This document shows positions 9,781-41,593 of a stretch of DNA of 64,000 nucleotides, piece after piece; the stretch's first letter is position 1; each line of letters starts with the position of its first letter. Source of the DNA: Clostridia bacterium (GTDB lineage Bacteria; Bacillota; Clostridia; Christensenellales; CAG-138); assembly GCA_035561095.1 (NCBI GenBank), contig DATMYE010000026.1:7917-71916 (forward strand), given 5' to 3'. Below the pieces are notes generated by a model. The model worked only from the letters and a program-made list of their open reading frames with translations, had not been told where the DNA came from and did not search any database. Position numbers and translations under genes: made by a program.

Positions 9781-9867
9781 TGGTGCAGGAAACAGGACTT
9801 GAACCTGCATGAGTGTGACCTCACACGGACCTGAACCGTGCGCGTCTGCCAATTCCGCCATTCCTGC
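9781..9867 (-). tRNA. tRNA-Leu (anticodon CAG), class II long variable arm, CCA encoded
   Basis: Manual fold: acceptor GCAGGAA/TTCCTGC, anticodon loop TTCAGGT, T-loop GGTTCAAGTCC. Confidence 0.9.
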
Positions 9868-9881
9868 AATGGTGAGATGAT

Positions 9882-9966
9882 TGGTGGATGGGGATGGATT
9901 CGAACCATCGAAGTCTACGACAACGGATTTACAGTCCGCTCCCTTTGGCCGCTCGGGAACCCATCC
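9882..9966 (-). tRNA. tRNA-Tyr (anticodon GTA), long variable arm, CCA encoded
   Basis: Manual fold: acceptor GGATGGG/CCCATCC, anticodon loop CTGTAAA. Confidence 0.9.
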
Positions 9967-10014
9967 ACGTAAAAGTGTGTGTGGAATCGGCTATTCACTT
10001 TTCAAGGAAAACAG

Positions 10015-10090
10015 TGGAGCTGGTGATGGGACTCGAACCCGCAACCTGCTGATTACAAATCAGCTGCTCTGCCAATTGAGCTACACCAGC
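10015..10090 (-). tRNA. tRNA-Thr (anticodon TGT), CCA encoded
   Basis: Manual fold: acceptor GCTGGTG/CACCAGC, anticodon loop TTTGTAA. There is one C.A mismatch in the T stem. Confidence 0.85.
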
Positions 10091-10099
10091 CAGCAAATC

Positions 10100-10175
10100 T
10101 GGTGCCTCAGAGTGGACTTGAACCACCGACACAGGGATTTTCAGTCCCTTGCTCTACCAGCTGAGCTACCGAGGC
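10100..10175 (-). tRNA. tRNA-Phe (anticodon GAA), CCA encoded
   Basis: Manual fold: anticodon stem-loop AGGGA-CTGAAAA-TCCCT and GGTTCAAGTCC T-arm. Confidence 0.9.
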
Positions 10176-10183
10176 AAAAATAA

Positions 10184-10260
10184 TGGCGACCCGGAGGGGG
10201 CTCGAACCCCTGACCTCCAGCGTGACAGGCTGGCGTACTAACCAACTGTACTACCGGGCC
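10184..10260 (-). tRNA. tRNA-Asp (anticodon GTC), CCA encoded
   Basis: Manual fold: anticodon stem-loop CCAGC-CTGTCAC-GCTGG. Confidence 0.9.
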
Positions 10261-10298
10261 ATAATATAAACATTGCCATCTGGCATCTCAAGCGAAAG

Positions 10299-10375
<77 letters not shown>

Positions 10376-10391
10376 AAGTACCTGAAAAAAA

Positions 10392-10466
10392 TGGTGACCC
10401 CGAGGAGAATCGAACTCCTGTTACCGCCGTGAAAGGGCGGTGTCTTGACCGCTTGACCACGGGGCC
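10392..10466 (-). tRNA. tRNA-Glu (anticodon TTC), CCA encoded
   Basis: Anticodon stem-loop CCGCC-CTTTCAC-GGCGG. Confidence 0.9.
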
Positions 10467-10471
10467 ACTTC

Positions 10472-10548
10472 TGGTCGGGGTGAAAGGATTTGAACCTTCG
10501 GCCCCATGCTCCCAAAGCACGTGCGCTACCGGACTGCGCTACACCCCG
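10472..10548 (-). tRNA. tRNA-Pro (anticodon TGG), CCA encoded
   Basis: Acceptor CGGGGTG/CACCCCG, anticodon loop TTTGGGA. Confidence 0.9.
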
Positions 10549-25414: not shown

Positions 25415-25726
25415 AAGTCGTACTCTCCCTATCCTTTTTCAAATCGAATCCGTAAAACAAATAAAAACGCCCGCTTCGCCAAAGGACGAAGCGGACGCTC
25501 GCGGTACCACCTTTGTTGAATACCGTGCCAACGGGCAGAGTATTCCTCTTGGTTTTCCGTAACGTGGACAAGACGGGAAACGCTACAGCAGCTGCCTCGC
25601 GTCTCCGGCTCCGATGCGACCTTCCGCGTTTTGATTCGCAAACCGCCTCACAGCATTTTGGCGGTCTCTCTGGTGCGACAAACTCGCGTACTCCTCATCT
25701 TCATAGCCGATACATTTGAATCGATT
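25415..25726 (-). promoter_or_regulatory. T-box riboswitch leader of valS
   Basis: Minus strand contains a K-turn-like AUGA..AGUA, an AGAGAG bulge and a candidate specifier GAAG-GUC-G (Val codon at 25618-25620). The T-box sequence AAAGGTGGTACCGCG is at 25500-25514. A 12-bp terminator stem GCGTCCGCTTCG/CGAAGCGGGCGT plus a T5 run lies at 25458-25499. Confidence 0.85.
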
Positions 25727-37995: not shown

Positions 37996-39294
37996 TTGAA
38001 TACGCCCCGCCTACCTTCCGGAAAACCGAATAAGCACGTCTTCCCGCCTTCCGCGCGCACATGGATTTTGACCATTGCGGGCGGTTGCGTGATTGCGTTT
38101 ATCATTCTGCCGCTGGCGATCAACTATTTCACCGGCGCCAACGCGGTTGCGCAGGAAGCGGACCGCATCGTCCGCGAAGCGACGCCGACGCCGATTCCTT
38201 TCAGCGCCGATGTGCTCGCGCCGACCTCCTGCGCGGTCGATACCCCGCAGCCGGAACCGGAAGCAACCGCGGGCGTGATGGTATCGCAGTTCACACTGCT
38301 GCAGGAGAACGACGATTACCCGACCGTTTCCCAGCTGCAAAACAGGTTGATGGAGCTCGGCTACCTCGATTCCGACGAACCGACAACGGTCTATAACGCT
38401 GCGACCACGGTTGCCGTTTCGCTCTTCCAGCGCACGATCAGCGCACCCATGGACGGCGTCGCGACCGGAGAGCTTCAGGAGCATCTCTTCAGCGCGGAAG
38501 CCAAGCCGTATGAGATCAAGCTTGGCGACAGCGGCACGGACGTGGAGAGCATGCAGTCCCGCCTCAATGAGCTGGGCTATTACACCGATAAGATCAACGG
38601 CTATTTCGGCGTTGCAACTGAGGAGGCGCTACGGGCGTTTCAGGTGAAGAATAAGATCACGGATGACAGCGTGTTCAACGTGGAAGACCGCGACCTGCTC
38701 TATTCGCCGCAAGCGCGCCCGAAGATCGACCCGACACCGACGCCTTCACCGAAACCCACACCGAAGCCGACCAAGAAACCGACCACGACCAAGAAACCCA
38801 CGACGACCTCCTCCGGCGGCACGACCACGAACTCCGGCAGCAGCAGCACCGCGGCACCCGTTGTGACGGAAGCACCGGTCACCGAAGAAGTTAGCTACAA
38901 TGCATCCTATAGCCCCGACGGGCTGATCTCGGTTGCGAGCGCAATGCTCGGCAAACCCTACTCCTGGTCGGAGGAAAGCCCGTCCAGAGGCTTCGATTGC
39001 TCGGGGCTAGTCTACTTCTCTCTGCGCACCTGCGGCGTCAGCACGAGCCGCTACAGCGCGGCGGGGTTCTCCTCCGTGAGCGGCTGGACGGAGATCACCT
39101 CCATCGGCGATCTGCAGAAAGGCGATCTAGTGTTCTTTAAGAACGATACGTCAGACCGTGTGAGCCACACCGGCATCTACGCAGGCGGCGGAAAATTCAT
39201 CCACGCTTCGTCCAGCGCCGGCAAGGTCATCACGAGTTCGATCTCCACCGCGTACTGGACGCGCAATTTTGTCAACGGCAGGCGCGTGTTCTGA
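37996..39294 (+). CDS. Cell-wall hydrolase: TM anchor, two PG_binding_1 repeats, Pro/Thr linker, NlpC/P60 domain
   Basis: Motifs LQNRLMELGYLD and MQSRLNELGYYT, a PTPTPSPKPTPKPTKKPTTTKKPTTT linker, and catalytic FDCSGLVYF...HTGIY...IHAS. TTG start, less certain. Confidence 0.85.
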   Translation: MNTPRLPSGKPNKHVFPPSARTWILTIAGGCVIAFIILPLAINYFTGANAVAQEADRIVREATPTPIPFSADVLAPTSCAVDTPQPEPEATAGVMVSQFTLLQENDDYPTVSQLQNRLMELGYLDSDEPTTVYNAATTVAVSLFQRTISAPMDGVATGELQEHLFSAEAKPYEIKLGDSGTDVESMQSRLNELGYYTDKINGYFGVATEEALRAFQVKNKITDDSVFNVEDRDLLYSPQARPKIDPTPTPSPKPTPKPTKKPTTTKKPTTTSSGGTTTNSGSSSTAAPVVTEAPVTEEVSYNASYSPDGLISVASAMLGKPYSWSEESPSRGFDCSGLVYFSLRTCGVSTSRYSAAGFSSVSGWTEITSIGDLQKGDLVFFKNDTSDRVSHTGIYAGGGKFIHASSSAGKVITSSISTAYWTRNFVNGRRVF

Positions 39295-39295
39295 T

Positions 39296-40180
39296 ATGGA
39301 AGCTTGTATGCTGTGTCCCCGTATGTGCGGGGCGGATCGAACCAAACAGCGCGGCGTTTGCGGCGCGGATGATCAGGTGCGCGTGGCAAAGCTCATGCTG
39401 CACCAGTGGGAGGAGCCGTTTATCAGCGGATCGCGCGGCTCCGGCACCGTGTTTTTCTCCGGCTGCAACCTCGGCTGCGTCTATTGCCAGAATCACGAAA
39501 TCCGGGACGGCGGCATCGGTGACATCTTTGACGCAAACTCGCTTGCGGAAGCATACCTGACGCTTCAGCAGGAAGGCGCACACAACATCAATCTTGTAAC
39601 CGCGGCGCCTTATGTTCCTCAAGTTGCTAAGAGTCTCCGCCTTGCGAGATCCCGTGGGCTGCATGTCCCAGTCGTTTACAATTCCAGCGGCTATGAGTGC
39701 GTCGAGGCGATTCAATCTCTGGAAGGCCTGGTTGACATCTATCTGCCGGATTTCAAGTACGTTTCTCCCCTGCTCGCGGGGAAATTCTCCAACGCACCGG
39801 ATTACGCGGAGGTTGCTTCCGCTGCAATTCAGGAGATGTATCGTCAGGCCGGTGATCTGATTTTGGATGATGAAGGTATCGCAACGAGGGGACTCGTCAT
39901 CCGTCATCTCATCCTGCCGGGCTGCGCAGATGATTCCAGAAAGGTGCTGGACAGGATCGTCTCCTTCCTTCCGCTCTCCACGCACATCTCGCTGATGAGC
40001 CAGTATACGCCACAGGAGCATACAACCGAGTTCCCGTTAAACCGCAGAATCACGCAAAGAGAGTATGACCGCGTGATCTCGTATGCACTGTCGCTGGGGT
40101 TACACAACATCTTGTTACAGGAGCGTGACTCGGCAAAATCCGTTTACACGCCACAGTTCACAGAACCGATAAAAATTTGA
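39296..40180 (+). CDS. Radical SAM protein (PflX-like activating-enzyme family)
   Basis: CNLGCVYCQN (CX3CX2C) and an N-terminal CPRMCGADR..GVCG cluster. The ATG lies 1 nt after the upstream stop. Confidence 0.85.
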   Translation: MEACMLCPRMCGADRTKQRGVCGADDQVRVAKLMLHQWEEPFISGSRGSGTVFFSGCNLGCVYCQNHEIRDGGIGDIFDANSLAEAYLTLQQEGAHNINLVTAAPYVPQVAKSLRLARSRGLHVPVVYNSSGYECVEAIQSLEGLVDIYLPDFKYVSPLLAGKFSNAPDYAEVASAAIQEMYRQAGDLILDDEGIATRGLVIRHLILPGCADDSRKVLDRIVSFLPLSTHISLMSQYTPQEHTTEFPLNRRITQREYDRVISYALSLGLHNILLQERDSAKSVYTPQFTEPIKI

Positions 40181-40202
40181 CACAATTAACGCATAGATTT
40201 GC

Positions 40203-40231
40203 TTGCAATTGCATAATTCGGGTGATATACT
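40203..40231 (+). promoter_or_regulatory. Orphan sigma-A promoter with no downstream ORF
   Basis: TTGCAA-17 nt-TATACT with an extended TG (TGaTATACT). The 10-bp palindrome TGCAATTGCA overlaps the -35. Confidence 0.6.
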
Positions 40232-40386
40232 CGAACCATAAAAGTTCATAAGTTTCCGTCCGTTATGTGTGTTTTTTCATTACCGATTTCCTCCTTAAAA
40301 CCGCGTAACCGAACTACATCGTAACATCATAATTACTTTCTGGTGGATAGGGCACCATCGGAAAGGCTTAGCGGACGGAAAGTACA

Positions 40387-40564
40387 AAGGAGCTAGGAAA
40401 CTAGCTCCTTGTCTATTTTATTTAGCAGTTCGAAACTGCCTCAACATTTCGGTTTTTATCCGGAGCCAAGAAATTGGCTCCTTGTCTATTTTATCCAGCA
40501 GTTCGAAGCTGCCTCCACATTTCGGTTTTCATCTGAAGCTAGGAAACTAGCTCCTTGTCTATTT
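40387..40564 (+). repeat. Tandem repeat, 73-nt period, 2.4 copies, each starting with a GAAA-tetraloop hairpin
   Basis: Copies start at 40388, 40461 and 40534, and copies A and B differ at about 10 of 73 positions. Hairpin GGAGCTAG-gaaa-CTAGCTCC in copies A and C versus GGAGCCAA-gaaa-TTGGCTCC in copy B gives two compensatory pairs. Confidence 0.85.
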
Positions 40565-40583
40565 AATAGAATCTAAACAGAAA

Positions 40584-40614
40584 AGAGCAGGAACTATCTC
40601 CTGCTCTTTTTATT
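40584..40614. terminator. Bidirectional intrinsic terminator (candidate RNA on +, glcK on -)
   Basis: AGAGCAGGA-actatc-TCCTGCTCT followed by TTTTTATT on the + strand and TTTTCTGTTT on the - strand. Confidence 0.7.
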
Positions 40615-40645
40615 GGGTTTGGGCGACGCCCAAACAAATTATCCC

Positions 40646-41593
40646 TTATCTTTGCAAATACAGCATCGCGGCGCCGACGATACCTGCGTCGTTTTTCATC
40701 TCCGCGGTCACGATTTTCGCGTGGTTCTTGAAGAACGCATACTTCTTCGCGTACTCGCGGATCGGAGCAAGCAGAAATTCGCCGTCGTTGCTGACACCAC
40801 CGCCAAAGGCGATGATCTCCGGATCGAACAGCGCAATCGCCGTGCAGGCTGTAGCGCCAAGATAATCCGTAAACCGGTTATAGACTTCGCACGCAACCGG
40901 ATCGCCTTCCCGCGCGCAGTCCATGACGAGTTTTGCGTTGATCTTGGTCAGATCCCCCTGCGCGCGCTGATACATCGCGCTCTCGTGATGCTGACCCGCG
41001 GCTTTTCTGCCTTCGCGAACGAGCGCTGTCGCGGAGCAGTACGACTCGATGCAGCCGCGCTGACCGCAGGTGCAGGGTTCGCCGCCAAAGAGCAGCACCG
41101 CGTGCCCGAACTCAAACCCGTTCTTCTTACCGCCGACGAAAATCTTTCCGTCGAGTACAAGCCCGCCGCCGATGCCGGTGCCAATCGTGATCAAAAGGCC
41201 GGAAGAGCAGCCGCGGAATGCGCCGCTGTAATACTCAGCGAGTGCCGCCGCGTTTGCATCGTTTTCGACATAGACCGTAACGCCGGGGAACCCGTCGCCG
41301 ACGAGCTTGCAGAGCGGGAAATCGTGATAATCGAGGTTGTGCGCATCGATGACCACACCGCGGTCATAGTCGATGCTACCGGGCACGGCAAGGCCAATTC
41401 CCGCAATCTCCTCCGTTCGGAGATGATTCTCTTCGATCAGGTCGCGGATGAGCGACTGAATCGTCGCAATCGAATCCTTCGCCTCTCCCGTATGCGGAAA
41501 CGGAAGAGCTTTTTTACTCACAAGCGTATAGTCGTCCTTCACGACGCCAGCCGCGATCTTGCTTCCGCCGATATCTACACCAATACTGTACAT
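40646..41593 (-). CDS. glcK: ROK-family glucokinase
   Basis: GVDIGGSKI N-terminus and the zinc motif CTCGQRGCIESY. Confidence 0.88.
   Translation of the reverse strand: MYSIGVDIGGSKIAAGVVKDDYTLVSKKALPFPHTGEAKDSIATIQSLIRDLIEENHLRTEEIAGIGLAVPGSIDYDRGVVIDAHNLDYHDFPLCKLVGDGFPGVTVYVENDANAAALAEYYSGAFRGCSSGLLITIGTGIGGGLVLDGKIFVGGKKNGFEFGHAVLLFGGEPCTCGQRGCIESYCSATALVREGRKAAGQHHESAMYQRAQGDLTKINAKLVMDCAREGDPVACEVYNRFTDYLGATACTAIALFDPEIIAFGGGVSNDGEFLLAPIREYAKKYAFFKNHAKIVTAEMKNDAGIVGAAMLYLQR

Follow-up and report, generated by a model that had tools for sequence, protein, structure and literature searches.

A Predicted Small RNA Gene with a Tandemly Duplicated, Variable-Number Terminator Tail in Christensenellaceae and Related Clostridia

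The stretch of DNA analyzed here, hereafter the window, comprises 64,000 nucleotides (nt) from a Clostridia bacterium (Christensenellales, CAG-138; GenBank assembly GCA_035561095.1, contig DATMYE010000026.1, positions 7,917 to 71,916 of the forward strand) and contains, near position 40,400, a tandem array of hairpins with a 73-nt period. Comparison of this locus with its relatives shows a predicted small RNA gene with a tandemly duplicated terminator module, in which only the first stem is maintained and the sequence AUUGGCUCCUUGUCUAU is kept in every copy. That the array is the terminator tail of a small RNA is very probable, and we also consider probable the fuller account, in which it makes up the 3′ tail of a small RNA gene that is unannotated, restricted to one clade, and works by the mechanism proposed below. 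What the extra copies do is graded lower, since a role as pairing or termination modules and an origin as by-products receive about the same credence, in each case well short of even. Judging from the comparison, the upstream core and the first hairpin are the structure under strong selection, and the repeats are a variable tail. The center of the finding lies 130 nt upstream of the segment singled out in an earlier, sequence-only reading of this DNA, which had described 40387 to 40564 as structured RNA repeats and misses positions 40253 to 40381.

Related loci were gathered by three routes. Genomes fetched through the radical-SAM protein encoded upstream of the array contributed 80 loci, a metagenome scan with an RNA-only pattern (the two strands of the core's closing helix plus UUCCUCCUU) added 27 more, and a protein homologue search retrieved two near-strain contigs, L116 (98% identity) and L117 (90%). 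Exact matches to the two proteins flanking the element in the window were not on record. The 13 closest of the 80 loci (L001 to L013) are the only ones whose intergenic region is recognizable by nucleotide search; they are metagenome-assembled genomes labelled Christensenellaceae, Christensenella, Firmicutes/Bacillota, Clostridia/Clostridiales/Clostridiaceae, or Candidatus Aphodomorpha, with a flanking protein that is 55 to 83% identical. The core and the first hairpin were found in 13 genome loci, 27 metagenome loci, and the 2 near-strain contigs (42 in total), with 91 to 100% conservation against roughly 40 to 60% identity at synonymous sites. Of the 38 loci with sufficient upstream sequence, 37 have the radical-SAM gene ending approximately 75 to 165 nt, mostly approximately 75 to 100 nt, ahead of the core; the sole exception is L096, where this gene was not detected upstream. 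The same arrangement is present in L117, and the constant neighbor holds also for loci that were found by the RNA pattern alone. Nothing comparable to the RNA was found 3′ of radical-SAM homologues outside the group (L014 itself is about 55% identical). Because these homologues lack a comparable downstream element and the neighbor is constant in the carriers, the small RNA element is taken, from these sequences, to be clade restricted and confined to a single locus.

The core spans approximately 130 nt and is predicted to fold into a four-way junction (Table 1). Its mean column identity over 15 distinct Christensenellaceae sequences is 96%, and it is 91 to 98% identical to the window in relatives whose 4-fold degenerate sites (identities taken from tblastn segments) are 35 to 60% identical. 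Across 28 distinct cores, UUCCUCCUU is invariant and the anti-Shine-Dalgarno (anti-SD)-like sequence UUCCUCCUUAA, located in the predicted loop of helix P2, is near-invariant, with one U in its final AA in L091. RNAalifold run on a plain MAFFT alignment misaligned helix P3 and recovered the structure only partly; it was replaced by a structure set by hand from single-sequence folds and divergent members, from which a covariance model (R1) was built. This model matched 31 true loci, with one copy per locus, and aligned the divergent cores. It also gave a weak, spurious match in L100 (E = 0.039). Paired cells on the R1 alignment amount to 96.2%, versus 88.4% in shuffles and 25 to 50% with slid partners, and changes on both sides of a pair are concentrated in P3, in the inner end and extension of P1, and in one pair of P2. 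A covariance model had been suggested earlier as a check on the repeat; the one built here is of the upstream core, whose structure the pair counts support.

Assignment of the RNA to the + strand, which the sequence-only reading had also made, is supported by the orientation of the predicted promoter and terminator, by G·U pairs in P1 and P3 that would be A·C on the opposite strand, and by the stronger + strand fold of the 380 nt from the predicted start to the final terminator (z = −8.6, versus −6.1 for the − strand). The minus-strand reading was rejected: a promoter-like TTGAGG-18-TAAAAT (40444 to 40415) leads to no plausible open reading frame (ORF), and the A·C pairs and weaker z-score fall on that side. 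A coding function was rejected as well, in agreement with the sequence-only reading. In relatives, a 1-nt indel (AAAA/AAA) and the loss of its only ATG disrupt the 19-codon ORF of the core, and a 55-amino-acid TTG ORF in the tail (40409 to 40576) crosses the 73-nt period, a length not divisible by 3, and copies whose number varies.

The element could not be assigned to any known RNA family, and here too the searches agree with the earlier impression. Rfam 15 gave no match to the window element at the gathering threshold; a search of 40100 to 40700 at E values up to 10 returned chance matches of at most 18 bits and no relevant family, and the divergent orthologues gave only a chance match to RcsR1 (E = 0.29). 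No sequence or structural homology was found to any Rfam model, including those of RsaE, RNAIII, and FsrA, families that we take to be represented in Rfam. ARAGORN found no tRNA or transfer-messenger RNA, and literature searches returned no described Christensenellaceae small RNA, regulatory RNA, or motif. We rate the element as a new small RNA family with an unusual variable-number terminator tail, for which no description was found in Rfam 15 or the literature searched.

The predicted promoter upstream of the core is of the sigma-70 type with an extended −10 element and reads TTGCAA-17-TGaTATACT (TTGCAA at 40203 to 40208, a 17-nt spacer, TG at 40223 and 40224, and TATACT at 40226 to 40231). 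Most relatives have a TATACT- or TATAAT-like hexamer with the upstream TG equally far from the core; in L011 and L096, the most divergent of them, the −10 hexamers are weaker (TACAAT and TAAAGT). Relatives whose 4-fold sites are 35 to 60% identical have a promoter that is 64 to 93% identical to that of the window. The promoter scan detected no + strand promoter-like site inside 40387 to 40579. A perfect 10-bp palindrome, TGCAATTGCA (40204 to 40213), overlaps the −35 element; it is kept in most Christensenellaceae loci, is lost in L010 and L094, and could be an operator for a dimeric regulator. Palindromes of 10 bp are not rare, about 60 being expected per 64 kb.

Hairpin 1, which is also copy A of the repeat, starts 5 nt past helix P1, folds with −16.4 kcal/mol in RNAfold, and was flagged by the terminator scan, which made terminator-like calls at all the repeat hairpins. 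The stem-pairing survey covered the first copies of 30 loci and 21 distinct extra copies from 15 loci. All 30 first copies have a perfect 10-bp stem, of which there are three variants: CCAA/UUGG (26 loci), CUAG/CUAG (3 loci), and CCAA-GUAU-UUGG (1 locus). Since 10 of 10 pairs are kept in every locus across three sequences, the comparison gives genuine evidence that the pairing of hairpin 1 is under selection. Seven distant orthologues (L011, L012, L081, L090, L091, L096, and L107) lack the AAGGAGCC hairpin and carry at the same position an ordinary GC-rich terminator with a U-tract, which identifies hairpin 1 as the predicted intrinsic terminator of the small RNA gene. It has a stem-loop followed by a U-rich tract (UUGUCUAUUUU after copies A and B) and lies at the predicted 3′ end of the RNA. 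The tract is interrupted, making the efficiency of termination uncertain.

The terminator region itself varies in other ways. Hairpin 1 and its tail are duplicated independently in L106 (426 to 476), with a 35-nt period and no spacer, and this shows a region that appears to be duplication prone in more than one way. L100 (440 to 570) has the loop GUAU instead of GAAA in hairpin 1; a hairpin-1-like stem, GGAGCCA-AAUUC-UGGCUCC, is nested in a larger terminator approximately 100 nt downstream, and directly after this terminator a putative tRNA gene, judged by eye, lies on the other strand.

The array in the window was defined with Tandem Repeats Finder and a direct-repeat search. Units A and B are 86% identical, the spacing is exactly 73 and 73 nt, and the GAAA loops are at 40397 to 40400, 40470 to 40473, and 40543 to 40546, so that the exact period and the three loops of the sequence-only reading were recovered. 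The 18-mer TTGGCTCCTTGTCTATTT occurs three times in the window when up to three mismatches are allowed, against 0.03 expected. Copy A reads GGAGCTAG-GAAA-CTAGCTCC and copy B GGAGCCAA-GAAA-TTGGCTCC, with two base pairs changed on both sides. Units A and B differ at 10 positions, 4 of which are in these two compensated pairs, matching the earlier count, and the second hairpin (GCAGTT-CGA-AACTGC at 40425 to 40439), with its U-A to U·G change at 40498 to 40512, was likewise confirmed. The tail as a whole (40382 to 40579) folds at z = −5.4 relative to shuffles.

Other details of that reading have to be corrected. Copy C had been given the same sequence as copy A; its 5′ arm is GAAGCTAG (40535 to 40542) rather than GGAGCTAG, so that it reads GAAGCUAG and not GGAGCUAG, with an A·C mismatch and a continuous stem of 6 bp (−8.1 kcal/mol in RNAfold). 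Copy C thus appears from its sequence to be decaying. The pairing of AAGGAG with CUCCUU, attributed to each hairpin, is found in copy A only (one of three), copy B being preceded by CC and copy C by CU. The conserved sequence said to follow each hairpin does follow copies A and B, while the tail of copy C, UUGUCUAUUUAAU, differs by one position.

Among the relatives, the module consists of the 3′ part of the hairpin, the UUGUCUAU-U tail, and about 45 nt, and it occurs in 1 to 6 copies with a period of 69 to 74 nt. One copy is present in L008, L083, L093, L102, L104, and L105; two in L001, L002, L004, L005, L007, L013, L082, L087, L098, and L101; three in the window, L116, and L094 (at a contig end); four or more in L003; and six in L010. 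The extra copies have mostly lost the stem. They keep a mean of 5.0 of 10 pairs, and 13 of the 21 have 5 pairs or fewer. The stem is full in two of them (copy B, shared by the window and L116, and a copy in L101), six have one or two mismatches (copy C of the window, copy C of L116, and copies in L007, L013, and L106), and the remainder have no complementary 5′ arm. Position by position, the 5′ arm is conserved at 10 to 60% and the 3′ part AUUGGCUCCUU at 90% or more, and the 3′ half AUUGGCUCCUUGUCUAU is almost unchanged in every copy. The arrays of L010 (six copies) and L003 (at least four) fold like shuffles (z = +1.3 and −0.4). The second hairpin is kept in L001, L082, L087, and L005 (with G·U pairs) and is lost in L003, L010, L094, and L004.

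On this comparison, hairpins in the extra copies characterize the window and a small number of its relatives but not the repeat family as a whole, and selection for pairing acts on the first copy only. The earlier claim of selection on RNA structure consequently stands for hairpin 1 in its first copy and fails for the 73-nt unit as such; decay of the repeat in homologous loci with loss of pairing, which had been set beforehand as the test of that claim, is what the extra copies display.

The near-strain contig L116 illustrates how the copies change. Its promoter and core are 100% identical to those of the window, and its 4-fold sites are 92 to 94% identical. Copy A of L116 is CCAA/UUGG and, like copy B, has CC at the two variable positions that follow; copy B itself is present as well. 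Copy C is GGAGCUUG/CUAGCUCC with a U·U mismatch, differing from the single mismatch of copy C in the window, and because each strain has its own single disruptive mutation, selection on the copy C stem appears relaxed. The tails of the window and L116 show 14 differences, and 6 of these make up a single block that changes copy A to copy B or vice versa, a pattern indicating that copies have undergone conversion or unequal exchange. Copy 1 of L117, L002, and L098, loci of two distinct core subtypes, also carries the CUAG/CUAG allele, as does copy 3 of L116. Since this allele recurs in orthologous first copies, the compensatory differences that separate copies A and B, four in number, amount to one preexisting hairpin allele (CCAA/UUGG versus CUAG/CUAG) that was moved by recombination, and not to independent events within the array as had been supposed.

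A canonical terminator follows the last repeat copy in most relatives, as it does in the window, where it has an A-rich flank on one side and a U-rich flank on the other and is predicted to end both the read-through transcripts of the small RNA (+) and the convergent ROK gene (−). Positions 40584 to 40614 of this final terminator align in register with the 31-nt hairpin-plus-tail of the repeat at 65% identity; it may descend from the module as an ancient copy that has since diverged, or the likeness of two sequences made of a hairpin and a T-tract may be due to chance.

The mechanism that we propose is as follows. Transcription would start at about 40238 to 40241, as placed by the extended −10 promoter, and would first produce the four-helix core of approximately 130 nt, with its largest loop exposing the anti-SD-like UUCCUCCUUAA. 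Hairpin 1 (40387 to 40410) with UUGUCUAUUUU would come next as an intrinsic terminator. Comparison with the relatives shows the 73-nt units to be tandem duplications of this terminator module (hairpin, U-rich tail, and about 45 nt) that are made and reshuffled by unequal recombination or slippage, with hairpin alleles shifting between copies. The interrupted U-tract of hairpin 1 may allow partial read-through. Copies B and C would then act as backup terminators before the strong terminator at 40580 to 40611, which would also protect the convergent kinase gene, and nested 3′ ends would be expected near 40420, 40493, 40566, and 40615. Longer isoforms would carry additional copies of the CU-rich AUUGGCUCCUUGUCUAU, which would be single stranded in most relatives, where it has no 5′ arm. 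We propose that the AUUGGCUCCUUGUCUAU modules and the UUCCUCCUUAA loop pair with purine-rich SD-type sequences or bind a protein.

The evidence on the function of the tail is mixed. The first tail unit, formed by the spacer with its CACAUUUYGG block and the second 16-mer, is 81 to 95% identical where 4-fold identity is 0.38 to 0.60 (for example, 0.95 versus 0.52 for L001 and L082 and 0.84 versus 0.38 to 0.45 for the window and L005). Several points weigh against the proposed mechanism. Between the window and L116, the tail is 92% identical versus 92 to 94% at 4-fold sites, and short-term constraint is therefore not visible. The extra copies are dispensable, given the many single-copy lineages listed above, and the conservation of their 3′ half could result from gene conversion by the selected first copy and not from selection on each copy. 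The counts of covariation rest on an alignment fitted to the model and including one spurious row (L100, minus strand), and the transcript start, the 3′ ends, and read-through are inferred from sequence. Lastly, no target or partner was found: the search of the window for complements of the repeat motif returned 7 matches, a total within chance expectation (3.3), of which those with zero or one mismatch are the three repeat copies only, and the other four have three mismatches.

In a rival reading, the extra copies are functionless by-products, that is, a minisatellite behind a functional small RNA gene whose 3′ half is kept by conversion from the first copy. We regard it as possible, with a probability clearly below even. 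Hairpins followed by T-rich tracts readily undergo slippage and unequal crossing-over, and this reading fits a copy number of 1 to 6 with single-copy lineages being common, the decay of the 5′ arms together with arrays in L010 and L003 that are no more structured than shuffles, the independent gain of mismatches by copy C in two strains, and the near-neutral divergence of the tail between the window and L116 with its visible conversion block. It is harder to reconcile with the two-copy lineages, which keep the spacer (including CACAUUUUGG) and the second 16-mer at 81 to 95% versus 38 to 60% at 4-fold sites, a difference that is hard to obtain without selection. Moreover, the homology available for conversion is only 17 to 20 nt.

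A ribonucleoprotein-type or decoy RNA that mimics the 3′ end of 16S rRNA, in place of an ordinary base-pairing small RNA, seems unlikely. The mimic of helix 45 and its anti-SD tail would be formed by the 16S-like anti-SD GAUUUCCUCCUUAA exposed on the core, by the terminator hairpin as an SD/anti-SD duplex (AAGGAGCC/GGCUCCUU) with a GNRA loop as its cap, and by the repeated AUUGGCUCCUUGUCUAU as single-stranded, multivalent sites on a read-through isoform that is regulated. Such an RNA would titrate SD-containing mRNAs or a factor that recognizes the rRNA 3′ end, with copy number tuning the dose. What we take to be the 16S rRNA 3′ end (ACAAGGUAGCC..GGAA..GGCUGGAUCACCUCCUUUCU) seems to have loose counterparts in the P2 loop, GAUUUCCUCCUUAA, and in hairpin 1 together with the tail after it (40382 to 40418, ACAAAGGAGCC..GAAA..GGCUCCUUGUCU); the window contains no rRNA gene.

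The original view, in which each 73-nt unit is a structured module (hairpins 1 and 2) of an RNA family selected on its structure, has become quite unlikely. The window alone would recommend it, as copies A and B are perfect with two compensated pairs, hairpin 2 pairs through U·G, and the tail has its low z-score of −5.4; L101, L007, L013, and L106 also keep full or partial second hairpins. This view is contradicted by the 13 of 21 extra copies with at most 5 of 10 pairs, by the absence of hairpin 2 from several lineages, by the unstructured arrays of L010 and L003, and by the origin of the compensated pairs as an allele common to orthologous first copies rather than as events in the array. The units are also never found away from the core in the window or the 118 loci.

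A riboswitch or attenuator, with the core as a sensor of a ligand or protein and the hairpins as tandem expression platforms in cis, would account for the aptamer-like conservation of the core, the invariant junctions, and the terminator that follows, but we give it only a slim chance. The ROK gene is convergent, so that in the window the RNA lacks a downstream + strand ORF that it could control in cis; no such ORF follows the RNA in any locus, the next gene being convergent throughout (ROK kinase or acetyltransferase-like). No conserved antiterminator was found either: the candidate pairing of CUCCUU in the P2 loop with the AAGGAG of the hairpin 1 5′ arm was rejected, as it comprises 6 bp only and the arm is absent in distant orthologues. 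A variant would be a riboswitch-controlled small RNA of what we take to be the EutX/Rli55 type, with a ligand choosing between the short and the long isoform.

The retention of sequence rather than hairpin in the extra copies, at a regular spacing of 69 to 74 bp, could also suggest a DNA-level function, such as an iteron-like protein-binding site made of the conserved 16- to 17-bp sequence about 70 bp apart and regulating, for example, the convergent genes. This is very unlikely, since the sequence invariably points in the same direction as the small RNA and, in its first copy, makes up one half of an RNA hairpin that pairs through double changes. Furthermore, the repeats are not conserved in number, the locus has no linked gene for a candidate binding protein, and there are no copies elsewhere in the window or in the 118 loci. 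The repeats of a type III toxin-antitoxin RNA antitoxin, or a CsrA-type sponge, are scarcely credible: tandem RNA repeats between a promoter and a terminator are what either would show, but no gene resembling ToxN, AbiQ, or CptN follows, the repeated part is just the 3′ module of a larger RNA, in units of 73 nt, and the commonest hairpin loop region, CCAAGAAAUUGG, has no GGA.

Two further candidates were rejected. A dispersed repeat, such as a repetitive extragenic palindrome (REP) or a miniature inverted-repeat transposable element (MITE), would have refuted the sequence-only reading by its own terms, but the loci do not bear it out: the window contains only the array copies, and across 118 loci the 16-mer occurs in small RNA tails only, barring matches in 8 viral contigs that lack the hairpin context and are chance matches. 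No similarity of the element to plasmids or phages was found. A CRISPR array was excluded because the “spacers” are homologous between units (86% in the window and about 95% in L010).

With respect to known systems, hairpin 1 resembles intrinsic terminators in having a stem-loop and a U-rich tract right after the RNA body and in keeping its pairing through double substitutions. It differs in that the stem and the interrupted U-tract UUGUCUAU are almost invariant across genera, as terminator sequences normally are not, and in that the module is duplicated with a spacer of about 45 nt, the extra copies usually keeping the 3′ half only. The GGA-in-loop motif of CsrB/RsmZ sponges, which likewise repeat a short motif in and around hairpins of one transcript, is absent from the common allele CCAA-GAAA-UUGG (26 of 30 first copies), and the copy number here is low and variable. 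ToxI-type antitoxins share direct tandem RNA repeats between promoter and terminator, whereas here no toxin gene lies downstream and the unit is twice as long and attached to a unique structured core.

The closest parallels are found among trans-acting small RNAs. In the prrF1-prrF2 locus of Pseudomonas aeruginosa, read-through of the first small RNA terminator gives a longer isoform, PrrH, with a function of its own (PMC2851614). The tandem arrangement behind one promoter and the longer isoform are shared, read-through here being a prediction; in Pseudomonas, however, a whole small RNA gene with its own promoter is duplicated, whereas here it is the terminator module only. The core model has one match per locus, and the locus is thus not a set of sibling tandem small RNAs like prrF1/F2 or lhrC1-4. 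LhrC1-5, RNAIII, RsaE/RoxS, and FsrA use redundant C/U-rich motifs in loops, single strands, or the terminator region to bind SD regions (PMC4132741). Our RNA has comparable motifs complementary to SD-type sequences, one within its P2 loop (UUCCUCCUUAA) and one within each copy of the repeat (GGCUCCUU), although its core is a large, highly conserved four-way junction and not a short, fast-evolving RNA. Like these small RNAs, the element appears to be noncoding, has a predicted promoter and terminator, and has no cis target downstream, and the folding model places a CU motif in a loop or single strand.

TABLE 1 Predicted features of the small RNA locus and its flanking genes (window coordinates)
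Feature	Position	Strand	Description	Basis
Radical-SAM gene	39269..40180	+	PFL-activase-like	Pfam PF04055 and PF13353; NCBIfam, weak activase matches only
Small RNA promoter	40203..40231	+	Predicted, sigma-70 type	Promoter scan, 9/12 matches, extended −10 TG
Core	40253..40381	+	Four-way junction, ~130 nt	Conservation, covariance model R1
Core helix P1	40253-40265 with 40369-40381	+	13-bp closing helix	
Core helix P2	40276-40283 with 40305-40313	+	UUC-A-UUAC with GUAA-CC-GAA; 21-nt loop	
P2-loop motif	40288-40298	+	Anti-SD-like UUCCUCCUUAA	
Core hairpin P2a	40315-40323	+	Mini hairpin, UAC-nnn-GUA	
Core helix P3	40336-40346 with 40355-40365	+	11 bp; loop AUAGGGCA at 40347-40354	
Hairpin 1 (repeat copy A)	40387..40421	+	Stem AAGGAGCUAG-GAAA-CUAGCUCCUU, 10 bp, 40387-40410; tail GUCUAUUUUAU	
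Tandem array	40389..40564	+	Period 73, 2.4 copies, 85% matches, score 275	Tandem Repeats Finder
Second hairpin, unit A	40425..40439	+	GCAGUU-CGA-AACUGC	Seen in sequence
Repeat copy B	40462..40494	+	GGAGCCAA-GAAA-UUGGCUCC, 8 bp, ancestral allele, then UUGUCUAUUUUAU	RNAfold, −14.5 kcal/mol; terminator scan
Second hairpin, unit B	40498..40512	+	GCAGUU-CGA-AGCUGC, U·G pair	Seen in sequence
Repeat copy C	40535..40567	+	GAAGCUAG-GAAA-CUAGCUCC, 7/8 pairs, one A·C mismatch, then UUGUCUAUUUAAU	
Final terminator	40580..40611	Both	Bidirectional, 13-bp stem	Terminator scan; inverted repeat, 12 nt, 100% complementary
ROK-family glucokinase gene	40646..41593	−	Convergent	Pfam ROK, 1.7e-66; NCBIfam TIGR00744

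The array lies in a gap of 465 nt between the radical-SAM gene (+) and the convergent ROK glucokinase gene (−), and domain searches identified an NlpC/P60 protein and a HAD phosphatase among the other neighbors. Elsewhere in the window, a T-box leader is present at 25479 to 25713 on the − strand (103.9 bits versus a gathering score of 93), and nine tRNA genes are clustered at 9784 to 10548 on the same strand. An 18-nt tandem repeat (2.2 to 2.3 copies, 38760 to 38808) is found inside an NlpC/P60 and peptidoglycan-binding ORF (37996 to 39294) and probably encodes a repetitive protein linker.

For scans of sequence alone, this locus provides a caution, as differences between tandem copies that look compensatory can be one inherited allele shuffled by recombination. 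For the Christensenellaceae, which are prominent and heritable members of the human gut microbiota, it provides a concrete predicted small RNA gene, with riboswitch-like conservation of its core where synonymous sites are near saturation, an invariant anti-SD-like loop, and a 3′ tail that grows and shrinks. If the long isoforms are real, evolution would have a simple way to adjust the valency of the RNA, through the number of CU-rich modules.

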